Assembly (NCBI RefSeq): GCF_024502345.1
Contig: NZ_JALDNN010000001.1
Origin: Escherichia coli
GTDB lineage: Bacteria > Pseudomonadota > Gammaproteobacteria > Enterobacterales > Enterobacteriaceae
Reading direction: 5' to 3' (one strand)
DNA: 64,000 nt
In this document: positions 5,305 through 34,630 of the stretch, one piece after another
How positions within the stretch are numbered: position 1 is the first letter of the stretch
Layout: every line of letters begins with the position of its first letter
Notes under the pieces: model-generated
Told to the model about the DNA's origin: nothing
The model's database searches: none
What the model saw: the letters and a program-made list of their open reading frames with translations, nothing else
Made by a program: the position numbers and the translations under genes

Positions 5305-5340
5305 ATCGTCCAAACAGAGAAACAGGCCGCCGAAGCGGCC
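5305..5340 (-). terminator. putative intrinsic terminator downstream of xdhD
   Basis: GC stem GGCCGCTTCGGCGGCC (5325..5340) followed on the minus strand by a T-rich tract (TGTTTCTCTGTTTGG). Confidence 0.4.
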
Positions 5341-5349
5341 ATTTATTAT

Positions 5350-8220
5350 TTATATCTTTTCCAGCGCGGTGAGTATTTTCTCCGGTGTGAAATGCCATTC
5401 GCGTAACCAGATGCCGCATGCATCGTGAATTGCGGTAGCAATCGCCGGAGCTGCGCCATTTACACCGATTTCCGAGATCGATTTCGCCCCGAACGGGCCG
5501 ACTTTATCGTCGCTCGGCACCAGCACTGCGCGGAAATCACGCGGAATGTCACCAATTTTCGGTGCGCCGTAGCTGCGTAAATCACGCGTTAACGGGTGAC
5601 CTTCGGCGTCATAAATGATCTCTTCGCTCATACTGTGGCCGATAGCTCGCAGGGTAGCACCGTAGATTTGTCCCAATGCTAATTCCGGGTTGACCGGTGT
5701 ACCGCAGTCCAGCAAGGCGTAGAATTTATCCAGGCGGATTTCACCCGTACGCGTGTTGACGGCAACTTCAGCGAAGTTTGCGCCATACGGGAAGGCGAAA
5801 TCAGGCGTGATATAACTGCCAGTTCCCACCAGTGAACCAAAGCCGGTGCCGGTTTCGCCTTTATGAGCAATATCCCCGAAGCTGACTTCGCCTTTCTTGC
5901 CGCGCACGACGCCCGGCGTTGCCAGTTGAACATCTGCCACTGCCTCACCCAACATTTGCGCGCCGTGGAACAGAATTTTCTCCCGCAGATTTTCCGCTGC
6001 CAAACGCGCCGCGTTACCTGAGAAGCAAGTACCGGACGAGGCATATGCGCCTTTATCAAACAACGCATGATCGGTATCACCGGAGATAACATGCACGTCC
6101 TGCGGTGGGCAGTGCAGCACTTCTGCTGCCAGTTTCGTCACTACAGTATCCAGACCAGTACCAATATCCGCACCGCCAGAATGAACGATAAAGGTGCCGT
6201 CCGATTCCAGTTTGATCATGCAGTTAGCCTGATCGATATCCGGGATACCCGATTTCTGCATGATAATGGCGACGCCGCGACCGATGTGCCAGTCACCATT
6301 TTGCGGTTTCGGTGACGACCATTGGATCATCTCGCGACCCTGACGCAGGATCTCTTCCAGTGCACAGCTGGCGGCGGAAGGAACGGAGGTCGGCGCTTTA
6401 CCTTCACCGATTGCACCGAGAATTTTCAGCTCTTGCCCTTCGTGTACCCGGTTACGTTCGATAATTTCCAGTTGGTCGATCTGTAACTGTTCAGCCAGTT
6501 CCGCTAATGCCATGGTGATAGCGAAGTTACCTTTCGGTGCGCCATAACCCTGATAAGCACCATTTGGGCAAATGTTGCTGTAGTAGGTGGTGACCTGGAA
6601 ATCGACGTTATCGCACGGATATAACGGCAGCGACAGCGCCGGTCCGTTACACGGTACGGTGAGTGAGTGGTTGCCGTAAGGGCCAGTGTTGGCGCGGAAA
6701 TCCATCTTCACTGCCGTCAGGCGACCATCTTTTTTCGCTCCCAGTTTGACGGTGACTTTCGCGACGTGACGAGAGGTGTTAGCAATAAACTCTTCTTCAC
6801 GGGTGTAGCGGAACAGGACCGGACGCCCGGTCACGCAGGTTGCCCAGGCGCACACTTCTTCCAGCAGGATGTCCTGTTTGGAACCAAAACCGCCGCCAAC
6901 TCGTTCTTTAATGACATGAACTTTATGCTGTTTCATGCCCACGAGGCGCGCGACCTGGCGGCGTAAGTGCCATGGTACCTGGGTGGAGGCGTGGATAACC
7001 AGACGATCGCCGTCCATACGAGTAAAGCAGATATGTGTTTCAGTCGGGCACTGCTGCGCTTGCGTTGAGTTATAGGTTCGCTCAATGATCACATCGGCAT
7101 CGGCAAAGCCTTTGTCCATATCGCCAATATGACCATGAATACTGGCGGCGATATTTTTGCGTGGACGAGAACCGATCGGGAAGTTGATGATCATATGCTC
7201 GCCGCGCTGGGCTGCATGGCTGTTATCGTCTTCCAGAGTATCTGGCGCACCAGCAACATACACAACCGGTTCATCGTGCACGACAGGCGCATCTTCCGCC
7301 ATTGCTTCGTCGATCGACATTACCGGTTTAAGCACTTCATATTCAACGTCGATGAGCTTCAATGCTTCAAGCGCAATTTCTTCACTTTCAGCGACGACCG
7401 CAGCAACACGATCGCCGACGTGACGCATTTTCTTGCCGAACATACGGCGGTCAAGCGGTGACGGTTCCGGTGCGCTCTGCCCCCCCGGGGTATAGTAGAT
7501 ATCCGGGCAATTCAGATGAGTAATAACGTGAACGACGCCCGGTAAGGCTTCAGCTTTGCTGACATCCAGATGAGTAATCAGTGCGTGAGCGTGTGGGCTA
7601 CGTAACATTTTAATGACGCAGGCGTCAGCCGTTACGCGGTCTTCAACATAGCAGGGCTTCGCCTGCACCATTTTTGCGGCATCAGTTTTAGGATAATGCT
7701 TACCAATGACTTCAAGGTCGTCACGGAAAGTCGGAGCGATATCAATGGTGGCCTGCGGATTATTTTTACGTGCAACCGCCAGTTCAATGACCTGATAGTA
7801 TTGTTGCCAGCCTGCATCGCGGCTGAACAAACCAGAAAGCGCGTCGTCGATCTCTTCGCGGGTAGGTGCGGCGATGCGATCGAGAAGATCGGTGATAATC
7901 AGAGCCGCAGCTGGATCGTTATAACCAGACTGCACCACGCCAACATCAACCATTGCCTGTTGAACCAGACTTAACTCGTTCCATTTGCCCAGAGATTCTG
8001 CGGTACGAATATCTGCCTTCTCTAACTGTGCGGCAATAAGCAAGGACGCGTTAACGATATTACCGTTAAAGATAATTGCGTCAGAACCGGCAAACCCGAA
8101 GCCATCATCACTGTTGCGTACAGAGTGCATTCCCATGTTAAACAACAGCTTTTGCACGTTTTCGCCTAGATTAACGGTTAGCTCCTGAGGCGCGCCATTT
8201 AAAGTAAAGTGGATGATCAT
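5350..8220 (-). CDS. xdhD: molybdopterin-dependent hydroxylase (xanthine dehydrogenase family) with N-terminal Fe-S domain
   Basis: 956 aa ORF; aldehyde oxidase/xanthine dehydrogenase molybdopterin-binding domain motifs (GGGFGSK, GTGLDTV). Confidence 0.85.
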   Translation of the reverse strand: MIIHFTLNGAPQELTVNLGENVQKLLFNMGMHSVRNSDDGFGFAGSDAIIFNGNIVNASLLIAAQLEKADIRTAESLGKWNELSLVQQAMVDVGVVQSGYNDPAAALIITDLLDRIAAPTREEIDDALSGLFSRDAGWQQYYQVIELAVARKNNPQATIDIAPTFRDDLEVIGKHYPKTDAAKMVQAKPCYVEDRVTADACVIKMLRSPHAHALITHLDVSKAEALPGVVHVITHLNCPDIYYTPGGQSAPEPSPLDRRMFGKKMRHVGDRVAAVVAESEEIALEALKLIDVEYEVLKPVMSIDEAMAEDAPVVHDEPVVYVAGAPDTLEDDNSHAAQRGEHMIINFPIGSRPRKNIAASIHGHIGDMDKGFADADVIIERTYNSTQAQQCPTETHICFTRMDGDRLVIHASTQVPWHLRRQVARLVGMKQHKVHVIKERVGGGFGSKQDILLEEVCAWATCVTGRPVLFRYTREEEFIANTSRHVAKVTVKLGAKKDGRLTAVKMDFRANTGPYGNHSLTVPCNGPALSLPLYPCDNVDFQVTTYYSNICPNGAYQGYGAPKGNFAITMALAELAEQLQIDQLEIIERNRVHEGQELKILGAIGEGKAPTSVPSAASCALEEILRQGREMIQWSSPKPQNGDWHIGRGVAIIMQKSGIPDIDQANCMIKLESDGTFIVHSGGADIGTGLDTVVTKLAAEVLHCPPQDVHVISGDTDHALFDKGAYASSGTCFSGNAARLAAENLREKILFHGAQMLGEAVADVQLATPGVVRGKKGEVSFGDIAHKGETGTGFGSLVGTGSYITPDFAFPYGANFAEVAVNTRTGEIRLDKFYALLDCGTPVNPELALGQIYGATLRAIGHSMSEEIIYDAEGHPLTRDLRSYGAPKIGDIPRDFRAVLVPSDDKVGPFGAKSISEIGVNGAAPAIATAIHDACGIWLREWHFTPEKILTALEKI

Positions 8221-8996
8221 ACGGCTTCCTCCCCAGCCTGTTGGCAGTCGGCATACAGGTCGGCTACCAGAACTCCCGTGATATAGCGTTTATAGGCCAC
8301 GCTGCCCCGCAAATCTTCCTGCGGGAAAATGGCGTTGGCGACAGCCTGTTCAAGTGCATTGCCTTCCAGATTTTGTTTTTCGACATCGTGCAGACGCAGT
8401 GCTTTACTGGCGACGCCATCCAGCGCAATTCGCATACCGTCGTGGTCTGTCATTGCAACGGCTGCCGTCACGACGGTTAAACCTGCCTGAGAACGGCTAA
8501 TTTTGCGGGTCGCACAGGTGCGATACGGATCTTTAATGATAATTTCGGTTAGCAGGCGATCGCATGGGCAGGTCAGGTAGTCCTCGATTGACAGCGTTTC
8601 GCCGTTGCCAAAAACCAGTTCAGCATCCAGTGCCAGCAGGACGGGAAGCAGCACCGACTCTTCCTGCCGGGCGGCGATTTCACCACCAATGGTCGACTGA
8701 TTACGAACATGGCGTGAGTAAACAAAACCGAGGGCTTCACGCAGCGCTGCAGGAATAAATCGCGCATCACGCAGTGGCTGCAAGCGAGACATTGCGCCAA
8801 TCCGCAGTGCACCGTTATCCCAGTCAACCCAGTCCAGTTCCAGATCCTGTAAGGAAATGGCAATCTTTTTATCGGTACGGGTTGGTGTAGCATTGAGTTT
8901 GCTGCCCCCGGCGAACCAGACGGCTTCATCTTGGTAGCGGCGCTTCAGTTCCAGCGCCTGTTCGACAGAGTCGGGCCTGAAAAATTGTTCAATCAT
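8217..8996 (-). CDS. ygfM: FAD-binding subunit of molybdopterin hydroxylase (CoxM/XdhB-like)
   Basis: 259 aa ORF; stop overlaps the xdhD start (translational coupling). Confidence 0.8.
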   Translation of the reverse strand: MIEQFFRPDSVEQALELKRRYQDEAVWFAGGSKLNATPTRTDKKIAISLQDLELDWVDWDNGALRIGAMSRLQPLRDARFIPAALREALGFVYSRHVRNQSTIGGEIAARQEESVLLPVLLALDAELVFGNGETLSIEDYLTCPCDRLLTEIIIKDPYRTCATRKISRSQAGLTVVTAAVAMTDHDGMRIALDGVASKALRLHDVEKQNLEGNALEQAVANAIFPQEDLRGSVAYKRYITGVLVADLYADCQQAGEEAV

Positions 8997-9046
8997 CTTC
9001 TTTCCTTATTTAACCCTCTTCCCTGCGGGAAGAGGGCATCTGTCAT

Positions 9047-10375
9047 TTATGCCAGCGCATCCATCCGACGCCACATACTGGCAGCGGCTTTTCTGGCTTG
9101 TGCATAAATGGAATCGCAATCGAAGTTAAACTGACGGTCTTCATAGACCATCACACCATTGACCATTACGCTGTGAACGCTGCCTGAGCCCATACCGAAA
9201 GCGATATGCCCGGCGATATTGTCTGCCAGCAGCGGCGTCGGCGAGTTGTAATCGCAAATGGTTAAATCAGCTTTGTAACCGGCTTCCAGAAGCCCAAATT
9301 TCGCGCCAAAGTTGCGGCTCATCAGTTCGTTACCGTTAGTCAGGGCTTTGGCAAAACTGTCAGGCCACAGCGGATCACCCGCATCGCGATGTTTAAAGAA
9401 GGCAAATTTCATCTCTTCAAACATGTCCGAACCAATGCCGTCCGTTCCCAACGCCAGATTGCGGATGTCGCTAAGGTGATGGTTGTAGCCGACATGGTTG
9501 TTCATGTTTGAACGGGCGTTATGCACCAGGAACGCATCGCGCTGATTGAGTAGGGCGATGTCATCTTTCGACAAGTACAGCCCATGAGCGACCAGCGTTT
9601 TGCTGTCGATGAGATCGAATTGCGCCAGTCGTGCCAGCAGGTCTTTGCCGTACCAGTGGTGACTGTAGGAAACGTCGTAAAGGTCTTCCGCAGCGTGAAT
9701 ATGCAAACCACGGCCTGTGGCTTTCACGGCTTCACGCAGCATCTCCAGACCGGCATCCGGCACGGTAAACGGCGCGTGAGCACCGATATGTGCTTCCACC
9801 AGATACGGCTCGCTTGTCGCTTTCTTCGCCTCATCAATCAAACGGGCGAAACGGATGTTTTCTTCTACACCTTCCTGCAACTCTTTGATGCCGTTGTTAC
9901 GGTCAGTAGTTTCAAAACAGGTCATTGCGCGCAGGCCAACTTTTAAAAATGCGTCGCGCAATGTGGAGAGCGACCCGCCGATATACGCCGGAGAGGCATG
10001 GTGATCGATAACCGATGTACATCCGCTCTTAATCGCTTCCAGGGAACAAATCAGTCCGCTGTAATAGAGCGACTCTTCATCAAGGGCGCGATCGAGCCGC
10101 CACCAGAGATTTTTCAGCGTTGAGATGAAATCCGGGCAGGGGGCGATGTTTGCCATAATTCCGCGGGAAAGCCCCGAGTAAAAATGGTTGTGCGAGCAGA
10201 CAATTCCCGGCATCACAATCCGACCATGCATCTCTTTGTAGCTGGCATCGGGGTCGCGTTGCGTCAGGGCATCGCCGATAGCGACAATCACGTCATTTTC
10301 GATAGCGATATCAACGCCTTCCTGTACTTTCGCCGGGTGTAACTGCACTGCGGTGACATTCTTCAGAATCAACAT
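9047..10375 (-). CDS. ssnA: amidohydrolase-family protein (putative aminohydrolase)
   Basis: ORF 9047..10441 trimmed to MLILKNVTAVQLHP...; 442 aa; amidohydrolase HxH motif (VCSHNHFY). Confidence 0.8.
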   Translation of the reverse strand: MLILKNVTAVQLHPAKVQEGVDIAIENDVIVAIGDALTQRDPDASYKEMHGRIVMPGIVCSHNHFYSGLSRGIMANIAPCPDFISTLKNLWWRLDRALDEESLYYSGLICSLEAIKSGCTSVIDHHASPAYIGGSLSTLRDAFLKVGLRAMTCFETTDRNNGIKELQEGVEENIRFARLIDEAKKATSEPYLVEAHIGAHAPFTVPDAGLEMLREAVKATGRGLHIHAAEDLYDVSYSHHWYGKDLLARLAQFDLIDSKTLVAHGLYLSKDDIALLNQRDAFLVHNARSNMNNHVGYNHHLSDIRNLALGTDGIGSDMFEEMKFAFFKHRDAGDPLWPDSFAKALTNGNELMSRNFGAKFGLLEAGYKADLTICDYNSPTPLLADNIAGHIAFGMGSGSVHSVMVNGVMVYEDRQFNFDCDSIYAQARKAAASMWRRMDALA

Positions 10376-10377
10376 GA

Positions 10378-13300
10378 TTACACCTCCACGCGGCCCAGCA
10401 GATAATGATGATGCTGGTGGACATGGCTGATGATGCGGCACATATCGTTCAGCTCCGGTGGTACGTTGTTAAACTGACCTTCGCTGTCGATGTTTAACAC
10501 CCAGCTTTGGTTATTCAGACGTACTCGTACCCGGCAATCTTCCACAAGGAAGCCTGGGTTGCTGCTGTTATCAAAGTCTTGCGCCAGGCTGAAGACGGTG
10601 ATTTTGTCTTTGTATGGTTTACCGTTCCACGGACAGAACTGAGCGCAGTTGCCGCATTCGTTACAGTAAGCGTCGAGGTGCAGCGTCTGGAATCTATTCT
10701 GGAAGCCAGGGACTGCAATGGAGACGTTGGCGCGGTTCGGGCAGACATCCACGCACTTGCTGCAAACGTAGTTACATTCAAGGCAGCGAGCAGCTTCCTG
10801 CGCGACAAACGCATCACGATCGTCACTGTTCACCAGCGTGATAGAGATATCGCCTTTACGTTGATAGATTTCCGCCGGATTGACGTTGTTCCAGTATTTA
10901 TTGTTCTGGTGGGAACGGATATTTTCCCGACTAAGGATGGCATCGGTCGCCCGACGCGCGGTTCCGACAGCAGCGACAATGGAGGATGGTCCGCGCTGTA
11001 CGTCGCCGATCATAAAGACGTCAGTCAGACGAGTTTCGCCATTATGGTCGACGTCTGGCCAGCCGTTTTTGTCCAGCGGTACGCCCATCGCATTCAGGGC
11101 TTCAGTATCCTGCTGTTCACCGATGGCGGTGATCAGACTGTCTACATGCAGTGTTACTGTTTCGTTGGTTTCAACCGGACGGCGACGACCTTTCTCATCG
11201 GGTTCGCCAAGCGACATAACGCGCAAGGTTAAGGTGCCATCAGCATCGAAACATTCCGGATTATTCAGGAAACGGAACTCCACGCCGTCGTGCAACGCTT
11301 CTTCATACTCTTCGCGCCATGCGGGCATCTCTTGCAGTGAACGACGGTAAACGATCGTTGCTTTTTCTACGCCTGGAACGCGTAACGCCGCACGAGCGCA
11401 GTCCATTGCGGTGTTACCCGCCCCGACAACGACCACATGTTTGCCCAGCTTGAGCGCTGTACCCTTGTTGTATTCACGCAGGAAGGGGAGTGATTTCCAG
11501 ACATTTTGGTTGTCGCCCGCCAGTTTCACACCGCTATTTTTATCAGTGCCGGTGGCAATCAGAACATAGTGGAAGCCCTGATTTTTTAACTGTTCAACGG
11601 TCAAATCGGGTGAGCAGCCATACTCAAATTTCACGCCGTGAGCGGCAACAAAATCGATATCGTGCTGAATTAACTCTGCAGGAATACGGAACTGAGGGAT
11701 GATATTTTTCACCACGCCGCCCGCATTGGCTTCGCGTTCAAACAGCGTAACCGGATGGCCCGCTCTGGCAAGGAAGTAACCTGCAGCCAGACCCGCCGGA
11801 CCTGCACCAATCACTGCAACCGGATGGCGTGAACCAGAACCGGCTGGTTTGTGCCAGCGTTGCTTATATTCATCCCAACCTTTTTCCAGCGCGACTTTTT
11901 TCAGTTCGCGGATATTCAGTGCACTGTCGTAATCCAGGCGGGTACAGTTGTATTGGCACTGGTGATCGCAAATATGACCGGTAATGGCGGGCAGGGCGTT
12001 GCGTTGGTAGATAAGTTCCAGCGCGTCGGCATAGCGGTGTTCGCCAAGCAGACGGATGTATTCCGGAATATCTTGCTTGATCGCGCAGGCAGTAACACAG
12101 GGGGCAACGTAGCAGTCGGTCAGCGGCAGGTCTTCTGCCACTTCAATACGCTCTTCTGGCTTCCAGTGTTTCTGGGTGTATTCCATGGTTAGCGCGTCTG
12201 CTGCCAGTCTGTTCAGTCGTTCGACGTCAACATGGTCAAGTCCCCAGGCGTCGGAGCCTTCCAGCTCGCGCATGCAGGCACTTAAACGCAGATAGCCACC
12301 AGGTTTCAGCAGGTCGGTTGCCATAGTAATAGGGCGAATACCTGTATCAAAAATATCGCGGATAGTCAGCTGACTGGCACCACCGGAATAAGAAATGGGC
12401 AGTTTGCCGTCAAAGGCGCGAGAGAGAACTGCTGCAACATTGATGGAGAGCGGGAACAGCGCACGGCCTGACATATACATCTCTTCACCAGGCAGTGCGC
12501 CTTTATTGTTGATGGTGCCGAGAGTGTTAGTCAGTTTTACGCCAAAGCCGAGTGATTTTTCTTTTGCCAGTGCCATCAGGCGTTCCAGCATTTCCAGTGC
12601 TTGCGTCAGCTTGAGGTCGTGATCAAATGACTCTTCTTTTAAGCCTATGTAACCGAAACCGCAGACATCGAGGATCTCACGAACACGCGCGTACCCCAGT
12701 AAGGTCGGGTTGAGTTTCACAAAGGTGTTGAGCCCTTTTTCTTCCAGCATGTAGCGGCAAATGGCTTCGATTTCATGCGGAGGACAGCCGTGCATGGTGG
12801 AGAGGGTGACGCCCTGCACCATACTGGTGGGGATGCGAGCGGGTAAGGCTTGCAAGCTTTCGCGTTTTTCCTGCAATCCGTGGCGGGCTAAAAATGCGTC
12901 ATCCTGGAGTAATTTATTCAGCGTATCGCGATATTGCGCGAATTTCGGATGGTCAGATGCGTCCATCATATTGTCGATGAACTGTTGCATCGGCGGTTGC
13001 TTAATACCTTCAAGGTTGTAACCGACGCTCATATTAAAGATGAACGATTTACCGGAATCAGAAGGCTGGAACATCGCTTCGAGAAGGTGCAGGGCAAACC
13101 AGGCTTTGAGGTATTCATCCCAGGCTTTAAGCAGGGTAAATTCGGTAGACCATTCGGTGTTAAAGCACTCGTCTTCGGCATCGATACAGGGCTTTTCCAG
13201 CTCCAGGCGGTCAAGAATTTGGACGGTTTTTAGTTCGATGAAGCGTCCGCCAGTCAGCCAGGAAGTGACAATATTTTGCGCGAGCTGCGTGTGCGGGCCA

Positions 13301-13476
13301 GCGGCAGGGCCGACGGGAGTGGCACAGGTTTCACCGAAGACGCTAACAGTTTTACCTTTTACAGGTGAGTAAAACTGTTGCTCGGGAATACCAAAGATTG
13401 AGCGTTGTTGTTGGTATTCATCAAATATGCGCGTCAAAAGTTCCTCAAACGGAATGGGACGCATAATATCCCCCAT
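10378..13476 (-). CDS. ygfK: large Fe-S/FAD oxidoreductase (GltD-like domain fused to a dihydropyrimidine dehydrogenase-like domain)
   Basis: 1032 aa ORF; nucleotide-binding GAGPAG motif and C-terminal cysteine clusters; stop immediately precedes ssnA. Confidence 0.85.
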   Translation of the reverse strand: MGDIMRPIPFEELLTRIFDEYQQQRSIFGIPEQQFYSPVKGKTVSVFGETCATPVGPAAGPHTQLAQNIVTSWLTGGRFIELKTVQILDRLELEKPCIDAEDECFNTEWSTEFTLLKAWDEYLKAWFALHLLEAMFQPSDSGKSFIFNMSVGYNLEGIKQPPMQQFIDNMMDASDHPKFAQYRDTLNKLLQDDAFLARHGLQEKRESLQALPARIPTSMVQGVTLSTMHGCPPHEIEAICRYMLEEKGLNTFVKLNPTLLGYARVREILDVCGFGYIGLKEESFDHDLKLTQALEMLERLMALAKEKSLGFGVKLTNTLGTINNKGALPGEEMYMSGRALFPLSINVAAVLSRAFDGKLPISYSGGASQLTIRDIFDTGIRPITMATDLLKPGGYLRLSACMRELEGSDAWGLDHVDVERLNRLAADALTMEYTQKHWKPEERIEVAEDLPLTDCYVAPCVTACAIKQDIPEYIRLLGEHRYADALELIYQRNALPAITGHICDHQCQYNCTRLDYDSALNIRELKKVALEKGWDEYKQRWHKPAGSGSRHPVAVIGAGPAGLAAGYFLARAGHPVTLFEREANAGGVVKNIIPQFRIPAELIQHDIDFVAAHGVKFEYGCSPDLTVEQLKNQGFHYVLIATGTDKNSGVKLAGDNQNVWKSLPFLREYNKGTALKLGKHVVVVGAGNTAMDCARAALRVPGVEKATIVYRRSLQEMPAWREEYEEALHDGVEFRFLNNPECFDADGTLTLRVMSLGEPDEKGRRRPVETNETVTLHVDSLITAIGEQQDTEALNAMGVPLDKNGWPDVDHNGETRLTDVFMIGDVQRGPSSIVAAVGTARRATDAILSRENIRSHQNNKYWNNVNPAEIYQRKGDISITLVNSDDRDAFVAQEAARCLECNYVCSKCVDVCPNRANVSIAVPGFQNRFQTLHLDAYCNECGNCAQFCPWNGKPYKDKITVFSLAQDFDNSSNPGFLVEDCRVRVRLNNQSWVLNIDSEGQFNNVPPELNDMCRIISHVHQHHHYLLGRVEV

Positions 13477-15249: not shown

Positions 15250-15296
15250 CGGCCCGGGTATTCCGGGTTACTGAAAGGATATCCATTGAGGTTGGT

Positions 15297-16922: not shown

Positions 16923-16962
16923 ATGAAAATGGCCGGATGGTATTACCCCCCCGGCCTTAAAA

Positions 16963-17895
16963 TTACTGACAAATCACCGTTCCGGTTTTGCCTTCAATCC
17001 CTTCTTTCGCTTTGCTCAATACGGTAATCAGTGCTTCACGACCTGCGCGAGAGCGAGCAAACGAGGCGGCAGCTTCCACTTTAGGCAGCATAGAACCTTT
17101 CGCAAAATGACCTTCTTCGATAAAGCGTTCAGCATCACTTAATGACAGGCGATCGAGCCACTGTTCATTCTCTTTACCGAAGTTAATGGCCACTTTTTCT
17201 ACCGCAGTCAGAATGATCAGCATATCGGCATCAATCATTTCTGCTAAACGGGCGCTGGCCCAGTCTTTATCGATAACCGCGCTGGCACCACGCAGATGGT
17301 TACCTTCACGAATAACAGGAATACCACCACCGCCAACGGTGATCACCACCTGGCCTGCATCTACCAGAGCTTTAACCGTTTCTTTTTCAATAATATCAAC
17401 CGGTTTTGGCGAGGCAACAACACGGCGATAGCCGCGACCAGCATCTTCTTTCAGAGTGTAACCCTGTTTTGTCAGTTGCTCTGCTTCTTGCTCGGTAAAG
17501 AACGAACCGATCGGCTTGGTCGGGTTGAGGAATGCCGGATCGTTAGCGTCGACTTCGACCTGAGTAACCAGCGTTGCTACCGGTTTATTAATGCCCCGAG
17601 AAAGCAGTTCTTCTCTTAAGGCGTTTTGTAGATCGTAACCAATATAACCCTGGCTTAAGGCAACGCAGACAGACATCGGCAGCATTGGCGAGTGCGCTTC
17701 AGTTTTTGCAGCAGCTTCAAAGGCCTGGTTAATCATGCCCACCTGCGGCCCGTTACCATGAGTGACGATAACTTCATGTCCTTGGGCAATTAAATCAACA
17801 ATTGCCTGAGAAGTAATTTTTACCGCTTTCATTTGTCCGGCCAGGTCATCGCCCAGCGCATTCCCGCCCAGGGCGAGAACAATTTTCTTACTCAT
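16963..17895 (-). CDS. yqeA: carbamate kinase-like protein
   Basis: 310 aa ORF with the amino-acid kinase fold N-terminus (KIVLALGGNALG). Confidence 0.8.
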   Translation of the reverse strand: MSKKIVLALGGNALGDDLAGQMKAVKITSQAIVDLIAQGHEVIVTHGNGPQVGMINQAFEAAAKTEAHSPMLPMSVCVALSQGYIGYDLQNALREELLSRGINKPVATLVTQVEVDANDPAFLNPTKPIGSFFTEQEAEQLTKQGYTLKEDAGRGYRRVVASPKPVDIIEKETVKALVDAGQVVITVGGGGIPVIREGNHLRGASAVIDKDWASARLAEMIDADMLIILTAVEKVAINFGKENEQWLDRLSLSDAERFIEEGHFAKGSMLPKVEAAASFARSRAGREALITVLSKAKEGIEGKTGTVICQ

Positions 17896-19328: not shown

Positions 19329-19380
19329 AGCAAACTCCAAAAACCCTCCGGCGAACCGGAGGGGAATAAGTGAAGAGTAA

Positions 19381-20592: not shown

Positions 20593-20649
20593 TATTTTTC
20601 TCCAGATTTTTTACTCCCCGTTTTGCAGGGAGCAGTTCCAATAGGGTGA

Positions 20650-21846: not shown

Positions 21847-21903
21847 ATCCTATCCTTTTGGCCTCTGGAAATAGAGGGCCGACCAGCTGATCGGCCCGAG
21901 GGG

Positions 21904-34231: not shown

Positions 34232-34630
34232 TACACCATGATTTTGTAATTTTGCTGGGAAAAATTGCGATTAATCTGTATTTGCTATAATTCTGATTAA
34301 GACATTTTAAAATGCATTTCTCGTTATTAAATATGATTATGTTTCACTGATTTAATCTTACCTGGTTGAGGGTGGTTCAGATAACTATCTCATGGTATGA
34401 GAATATCTATATCGCAAATTGTTTTTGAATGACCAGAAGATATCTTGCGAATCTAAGTTATGCATCTTAAATGGTCTTATTTAAGATGTTCAGATCTCTT
34501 TGTGTGTTTAACTAACTGATAATACTAGGATATGATGAGAGAAGTGATAGGGCGGAATAATAACGAATGAACATTATGAAAACTGGAATGGTTCAAAATT
34601 GTAGCAATTTTGAACCATTCACAATGGATA

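Follow-up and report, generated by a model that had tools for sequence, protein, structure and literature searches.

A Conserved Stem-Loop between ssnA and ygfM at the Boundary of Two Enzyme Modules in the Uric-acid Operon of Escherichia coli

What a stable hairpin contributes to an operon when it lies in the only real gap between tightly packed genes is a question raised by the ygfK-ssnA-ygfM-xdhD operon of Escherichia coli. The operon is part of a reductive uric-acid degradation pathway in gut bacteria that has recently attracted attention, in which the XdhD-YgfM uric acid reductase complex converts uric acid to yanthine, while YgfK and SsnA together dearomatise yanthine reductively and couple this step to hydrolysis of the ring (PMC12507026). 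In the 64,000-nucleotide stretch of E. coli DNA analysed here ("the window"), which is ~99% identical to K-12 MG1655 in the reverse orientation, ygfK and ssnA lie 2 nt apart and there is a 4-nt overlap of ygfM with xdhD, so that the 50-nt spacer bearing the hairpin is the sole real gap in the operon. The hairpin lies exactly where the tightly coupled pair ygfK-ssnA gives way to another such pair, ygfM-xdhD, and the two pairs encode separate enzyme modules.

The RefSeq annotation holds no feature at the ssnA-ygfM hairpin, and among the literature mentioning ygfM no paper treating this junction was found. This instance is undescribed; its kind, a terminator-like stem-loop lacking a U tract, is well known.

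A Stable Hairpin in the Spacer

From the ssnA stop codon to the ygfM ATG the gap is exactly 50 nt, with both genes on the minus strand, and the junction is identical to positions 3020490-3020539 of K-12 MG1655. The features of the junction and of comparable gaps in the window are collected in Table 1. A preliminary description of the locus had placed a perfect 10-bp stem at 9014-9036 in this gap, and both its coordinates and its sequence prove exact: positions 9014-9023 (CCCTCTTCCC) and 9027-9036 (GGGAAGAGGG) enclose a 3-nt loop (TGC, 9024-9026). RNA structure prediction, suggested there as a check, adds a closing G.U pair (9037/9013) on the minus, or mRNA, strand to give 11 bp at -19.7 kcal/mol, with pair probabilities of 0.88-1.0 when the hairpin is folded inside 425 nt of mRNA context. 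Folding of the plus strand yields -17.7 kcal/mol; the sense and antisense energies are similar enough that energy does not separate the strand on which the hairpin acts.

Table 1. Features of the ssnA-ygfM junction, the operon modules, and other intercistronic hairpins, in window coordinates
Feature	Coordinates	Strand	Details and basis
Whole stem-loop, GCCCUCUUCCC-GCA-GGGAAGAGGGU	9013..9037	-	11 bp including outer G.U; fold and pair probabilities
5' arm in mRNA, pyrimidine-rich, G CCCUCUUCCC	9027..9037	-	begins 9 nt past ssnA stop
Loop, GCA in mRNA	9024..9026	-	free variation in E. coli alleles: GUA, GCU, UCA, UAA
3' arm in mRNA, purine-rich, GGGAAGAGGG U	9013..9023	-	ends 16 nt ahead of ygfM AUG
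ssnA stop codon UAA	9047..9049	-	gene calls
Likely ygfM Shine-Dalgarno AAGGA, 6 nt ahead of AUG	9003..9007	-	read from sequence; outside hairpin
ygfM start codon	8994..8996	-	gene calls
Upstream module ygfK-ssnA	9047..13476	-	gene calls; PMC12507026
Downstream module ygfM-xdhD	5350..8996	-	gene calls; PMC12507026
Terminator-like hairpin GGCCGC-UUCG-GCGGCC followed by UGUUUCUCUGUUUG, a U-rich tail, just past xdhD	5311..5340	-	hairpin search
GC-rich hairpin, yqeC-yqeB gap	15252-15268	+	shortly past upstream stop, ~50-nt gap
GC-rich hairpin CCCUCCGG-UUCG-CCGGAGGG followed by UUUUU, ygeY-hyuA gap	19339-19363	-	shortly past upstream stop
GC-rich hairpin, ygeX-ygeY gap	20614-20632	-	shortly past upstream stop, ~50-nt gap
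GC-rich hairpin, ygeW-ygeX gap	21876-21897	-	shortly past upstream stop, ~50-nt gap

Both the stability and the occurrence of this element are improbable by chance. With up to three mismatches tolerated, the hairpin pattern still occurs only once in the window, and none of 100 shuffles contains it. A search for perfect hairpins with stems of 10 bp or more gives 11 hits at 7 loci, as compared with 0.43 expected from dinucleotide shuffles, and the intergenic fold of the Escherichia alleles is 3.7-5 standard deviations better than dinucleotide shuffles of the same kind. Outside the stem, the likely Shine-Dalgarno (SD) sequence of ygfM is predicted to be mostly unpaired (accessibility 0.59), and its AGG is invariant in the junction alignment.

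Compensatory Change within Escherichia

The locus is present in 5177 of 5426 complete E. coli genomes, and two families of junction alleles account for all of these. The K-12-type junction is found in 3977 genomes, 3055 of them identical over 72 nt, and a second allele, characteristic of ST131, NC101, and related strains, is found in 1200, of which 1198 are identical over the same length. Members of both families fold, as judged from a sample of about 20 junction alleles out of the 5177 genomes. The second allele, CCCCUCUUCU(U)-UCA-(G)AGAAGAGGGG, folds as well as the K-12 type (-20.2 kcal/mol) and differs from it by replacement of the outer G.U with C-G, of one inner C-G with U-A, and of the innermost C-G with U.G. 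Among the other sampled alleles the changes are confined to the loop (GUA, GCU), convert the innermost pair to U-A (...CCU-UCA/UAA-AGG...), or, in one allele, convert a C-G to U.G. The allele of O157:H7, O55:H7, and O43 strains has lost a single G, which shortens the stem to 9 bp and leaves a 4-nt loop.

When 11 distinct Escherichia-type alleles are aligned without gaps, 93.9% of the cells pair. Shuffling lowers this figure to 88.1% (0 of 500 shuffles attain that of the real alignment), and displacement of the partners by 1-3 columns lowers it to 55-76%. Among these alleles, both members of the pair have changed at three positions of the stem. Judged from these substitutions, the hairpin is an illustration of how a structure can be kept up by compensatory evolution even within a single species.

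The spacer also contains a 17-codon open reading frame (MTDALFPQGRGLNKERR; window 8993-9046, minus strand) that in the K-12-type allele fills the gap exactly, its AUG directly following the ssnA UAA and its UGA overlapping the ygfM AUG (AUGA). As a conserved gene this candidate is rejected: the start is AUA in the second allele of 1200 genomes, the frame is broken by the 1-nt deletion of the O157/O55/O43 allele, and other genera have no AUG there. The frame is probably fortuitous. A separate observation concerns a 7.7-kb contig labelled Flavobacterium paronense (NZ_JAUFQN010000014.1), which is identical to the window over the 132-nt ssnA-ygfM junction stretch examined and which most likely represents E. 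coli contamination of a Flavobacterium assembly.

The Junction across Enterobacterial Genera

In most of the other enterobacterial lineages with an ssnA-ygfM junction, a stem-loop occupies the corresponding position, and although the stems differ in sequence they remain complementary. Examples include Citrobacter sp. R56 (CCCUCUCCU / AGGAGAGGG), three species of Atlantibacter together with one record labelled "C. freundii" (CGCCUCCCG / CGGGAGGCG), Trabulsiella (CCUCCCCGC / GCGGGGAGG), Pluralibacter (UUUCUCCCCC / GGGGGAGAAA), Yokenella (ACCUCCCCGC / GCGGGGAGGU), a K. oxytoca-like contig (CCCUCUUUC / GAAAGGGGG), [Enterobacter] lignolyticus (UUCUCCCCC / GGGGGAGAA), and Edwardsiella, which has a 14-bp GC stem. 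The geometry is also retained: in the lineages measured, the hairpin begins 6-9 nt past the ssnA stop and ends 15-18 nt ahead of the ygfM AUG, and in Edwardsiella it begins, as estimated by eye, about 10 nt past the stop.

In a covariance-model alignment of 24 sequences, 83.7% of the cells are paired, as compared with 69% after shuffling (0 of 500) and 53-64% with displaced partners; in 10 of 11 pairs both sides have changed. This alignment was fitted to the structure, yet a displacement by one column persists in its rows for Trabulsiella, Citrobacter R56, and Pluralibacter, a shift inherited from MAFFT cross-genus alignments in which some hairpins are one column out of register. Because of these misplaced rows, the cross-genus pair counts probably understate the pairing.

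Exceptions are found as well. In Klebsiella indica the stem is weak, with only 6 bp (z -1.3), and the hairpin of Citrobacter sp. MGH106 contains one C.A mismatch, from which it follows that the hairpin is not indispensable. The record labelled Citrobacter freundii M-21 (NZ_JAALBX010000005.1) has a junction and an SsnA C terminus of the Atlantibacter type, unlike other Citrobacter loci, and may be either a mislabelled record or a case in which the cluster has been transferred.

Rearranged Loci

Genomes in which the two modules have been separated provide a further view of which gene the stem-loop accompanies. The ygfK-ssnA unit stands alone and faces a convergent gene in Intestinirhabdus, Cedecea, K. 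michiganensis, and Kluyvera intermedia, and in these genomes ssnA is followed by a terminator-like hairpin. The U tracts after these hairpins are clear in K. michiganensis, where the terminator is AAACCGGCCUG-GCA-GGCCGGUUUUUUUU, and in Kluyvera intermedia; the U runs of Intestinirhabdus and Cedecea are weaker. A strong stem-loop is thus always present 3' of ssnA, whatever follows, and a U tract accompanies it only where the operon ends.

In Kluyvera, the copy of ygfM-xdhD lies directly past xdhABC with a 365-nt spacer between them and no ssnA cistron upstream, and an intact ygfK-ssnA ending in a canonical terminator is located elsewhere, an arrangement indicating that the cluster has been rearranged. 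By eye, ~45 nt of the 3' end of ssnA appear to survive in the spacer. The hairpin ahead of this ygfM is decayed, a stem of 5-6 bp around a loop of 11-13 nt, and folds no better than shuffled sequences. This decay, which represents one evolutionary event only, links the hairpin with the cistron upstream of it and not with ygfM. Likewise, the ygfM of Photobacterium has no hairpin.

Termination and Mapped 3' Ends

The E. coli hairpin resembles an intrinsic terminator in being a stable, GC-rich stem-loop (11 bp, -19.7 kcal/mol), the stems being of 9-11 bp and the loops of 3-5 nt, and in having orthologues that are terminator-like where ssnA ends its operon. It differs from one in what follows the stem. 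A terminator would be expected to have U at some 5 or more of the 8 positions past the stem, whereas the mRNA-strand tail here, UUAAAUAA, has it at 3, and a promoter/terminator scan makes no call at the hairpin. The preliminary description had already noted an A/T-rich tail that is not a clean U tract, and this reading is borne out. Orthologous tails contain 0-3 U of 8, with 4 in Edwardsiella only. In Atlantibacter, Trabulsiella, and Pluralibacter the tail has no U at all while the stem is conserved, so that termination cannot be the conserved function of the element.

The curated Term-seq data of Adams et al. 2021 (LB OD 0.4, LB OD 2.0, and M63 glucose) list no 3' end at K-12 3020300-3020699, a negative that is weak because these conditions do not induce the operon, and the TERMITe supplements contain no entry for the site. 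The same study reports an ORF-internal 3' end within xdhD in standard media (K-12 3022649; window about 6887, mRNA strand), which indicates that, under non-inducing conditions, RNA polymerase traverses the operon to some extent or starts inside it. A role for the hairpin as an intrinsic terminator in E. coli is not supported by these data; the true end of the operon is likely the hairpin just past xdhD (Table 1).

Known Classes of Element

Several other well defined classes can be set aside. A permissive Rfam scan (E up to 10) gives no match at the hairpin. A REP/BIME element or other dispersed repeat is rejected on copy number, as a 33-nt query (E up to 10) against 3977 genomes finds one place per genome (median 1, maximum 2). 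A bacterial SECIS element is likewise rejected, since ssnA ends in a true stop, UAA (UAG or UGA in some genera), at a conserved C terminus (...MDALA/N). Translational-coupling hairpins, like this one, lie where a ribosome that finishes at the upstream stop could reach them; unlike those that sequester the SD sequence, however, the ygfM SD and AUG are predicted to be accessible, lying 6-16 nt beyond the stem with an unpaired probability of about 0.6, so that this candidate too is rejected. Destruction of either arm in silico produces no consistent change in the accessibility of the ygfM ribosome-binding site (RBS) across the lineages measured.

A Proposed Protective Stem-Loop for the Upstream Module

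It is likely that the hairpin is a selectively maintained mRNA stem-loop and not a terminator. For its role, the reading favored here, to which we assign a probability of about 0.5, is that of a read-through 3'-end protective stem-loop that would stabilize the ygfK-ssnA segment of the transcript. As the hairpin has no U tract, RNA polymerase would read on into ygfM-xdhD; the downstream RNA would at times be cut by an endonuclease, or transcription would halt early inside ygfM-xdhD. PNPase and RNase II, degrading back in the 3'-to-5' direction, would then stall at the base of a hairpin of ~-20 kcal/mol situated 9 nt past the ssnA stop. The ygfK-ssnA segment would as a result outlive the ygfM-xdhD segment, allowing the cell to set the ratio of the two enzyme modules. 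Three features expected of such an element, a stable stem-loop directly past an open reading frame, the lack of a U-rich tail, and pairing kept in evolution, are observed at this junction.

Decay-barrier hairpins between cistrons are familiar from the stem-loop of the Rhodobacter capsulatus puf operon and from the REP hairpins between malE and malF. Like these, the ssnA-ygfM hairpin is located between cistrons, at a module boundary, where the upstream segment would live longer; unlike the malE-malF elements, it is single, short, and present in one copy per genome, and differential stability is here inferred. In its anatomy the hairpin corresponds to a class set out by Dar and Sorek 2018 (PMC6061677), stable E. 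coli stem-loops that lie directly past genes, have no U-rich tail, and halt PNPase and RNase II, in this way defining and guarding the 3' end. It shares with this class a GC-rich, terminator-sized stem-loop just past a coding region, with neither a U-rich tail nor an upstream A-tract; the class was defined by mapped steady-state 3' ends of transcription units, whereas the present example lies within an operon and is known from sequence and fold. If the hairpin sets relative mRNA lifetimes, it would be relevant to engineering or quantifying the uric-acid pathway.

Other Explanations

A role in translation, with the hairpin either insulating the ygfM RBS by locking away an anti-SD-like arm or acting as a barrier or hand-off for ribosomes finishing ssnA, is unlikely but accounts for several features. 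The spacing to both the ssnA stop and the ygfM AUG is constant within narrow limits in the lineages measured, and in nearly every lineage the 3' arm carries an SD-like core (GAGG, GGAG, AGGAG, GGAGG) with its complement in the 5' arm; in the Escherichia alleles, a freed 5' arm lowers RBS accessibility in silico from ~0.6-0.68 to 0.44-0.49. This effect is absent in Atlantibacter, Trabulsiella, and Pluralibacter, however, and the SD and AUG of ygfM lie outside the stem. The purine/pyrimidine asymmetry of the arms is, moreover, to be expected from compensatory transitions that pass through G.U intermediates, and any purine arm rich in G is likely, from its composition, to contain tetramers that look like an SD. 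A more specific version, in which a ribosome terminating on ssnA would melt the base of the hairpin and the SD-like 3' arm would retain the small subunit until it re-initiated at ygfM, 16 nt on, is very improbable. Were it correct, translation of ygfM-xdhD would depend on that of ssnA without classical SD sequestration, and hairpins of the CCCUC/GAGGG and CUCCC/GGGAG types (ygeX-ygeY, ygeY-hyuA) would form a module-boundary control set across the uric-acid cluster. It is doubtful, too, that the hairpin weakly terminates transcription or causes polymerase to pause after ssnA, either of which would lower transcription of ygfM-xdhD relative to ygfK-ssnA. The stem-loop has the geometry of a terminator and its E. 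coli tail begins with UU and is A/U-rich; the Edwardsiella version consists of an A-tract, a 14-bp stem, and UUUU, and the hairpin of the adjacent ygeY-hyuA gap is followed by UUUUU. Against this stand the poor U content of the tails and the missing Term-seq end discussed above, the latter a weak negative in an uninduced operon, and the partial terminator offered in the preliminary description is accordingly not sustained for E. coli.

The existence of genera with a stand-alone ygfK-ssnA ending in a real terminator suggests instead that the hairpin could be a near-neutral relic of an ssnA terminator whose U tract was lost when ygfK-ssnA joined ygfM-xdhD, a history with which the weak K. indica stem and the mismatch in Citrobacter MGH106 would agree. 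Compensatory double changes both within E. coli and between genera make such neutrality doubtful, as does the finding that all 5177 locus-bearing E. coli genomes fall in allele families whose sampled members fold, and the stand-alone terminators share no sequence with the hairpin. Protection might also be directed downstream. Stem-loops at 5' ends, such as that in the ompA leader, are protective structures, and the single-stranded A/U-rich flanks around the E. coli stem would suit an RNase E cut in the spacer after which the hairpin shields the 5' end of a processed ygfM-xdhD mRNA. These flanks are not conserved, however, the Kluyvera copy keeps ygfM-xdhD with a decayed hairpin, and the element tracks the 3' end of ssnA and not ygfM, which in Photobacterium has none, so that a 5'-end shield is very improbable. 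Least probable is an element acting in DNA, as a palindromic operator or a cruciform. The repeat is a perfect DNA palindrome with similar fold energies on both strands, but the arms, the loop sequence, and the loop length (3-5 nt) vary while only complementarity is kept. Several single-sided changes yield pairs that are G.U on the mRNA strand and would be A.C on the other, which is the case for most changes of this kind, and no promoter-like site lies nearby. Of the three options raised in the preliminary description, then, the RNA-level stabilizing or processing element fits the conserved pairing and the position, and neither the partial terminator, for E. coli, nor the protein-binding DNA site is supported.

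Other Hairpins and Repeats in the Window

GC-rich hairpins are found in four neighboring intercistronic gaps of ~50 nt as well (Table 1), which suggests that such elements are a routine part of how operons are built. The ssnA-ygfM hairpin is real, conserved, and an ordinary example of a common class. By its sequence, the ygeY-hyuA hairpin has the look of an internal attenuator or intrinsic terminator. No GC-rich hairpin is present in the hyuA-yqeA gap, and a CCCTC..GAGGG motif common to neighboring hairpins has only two occurrences in the window, which is not significant.

Two further regions of the window contain repeats of other kinds. The convergent yqeA/yqeB gap (window about 16930-16973; K-12 3012394-3012613) differs from that of K-12; BLAST leaves ~137 nt unaligned on the K-12 side and ~42 nt on that of the window. 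In K-12 this gap has, by eye, apparent REP-type palindromes with the hairpin GGCCGGGUGGGUAAUACCAUCCGGCC on either side of them as a direct repeat; the window strain, by comparison, has just one hairpin, which differs slightly. Of the perfect inverted repeats in the window, the longest is GAATGGTTCAAAATTG-TAG-CAATTTTGAACCATTC at 34586-34620, AT-rich and 16 bp in length, with a second, 10-bp inverted repeat close by at 34463-34488, and this region appears to be the degenerate ETT2 / ygeK-ygeL part of K-12.
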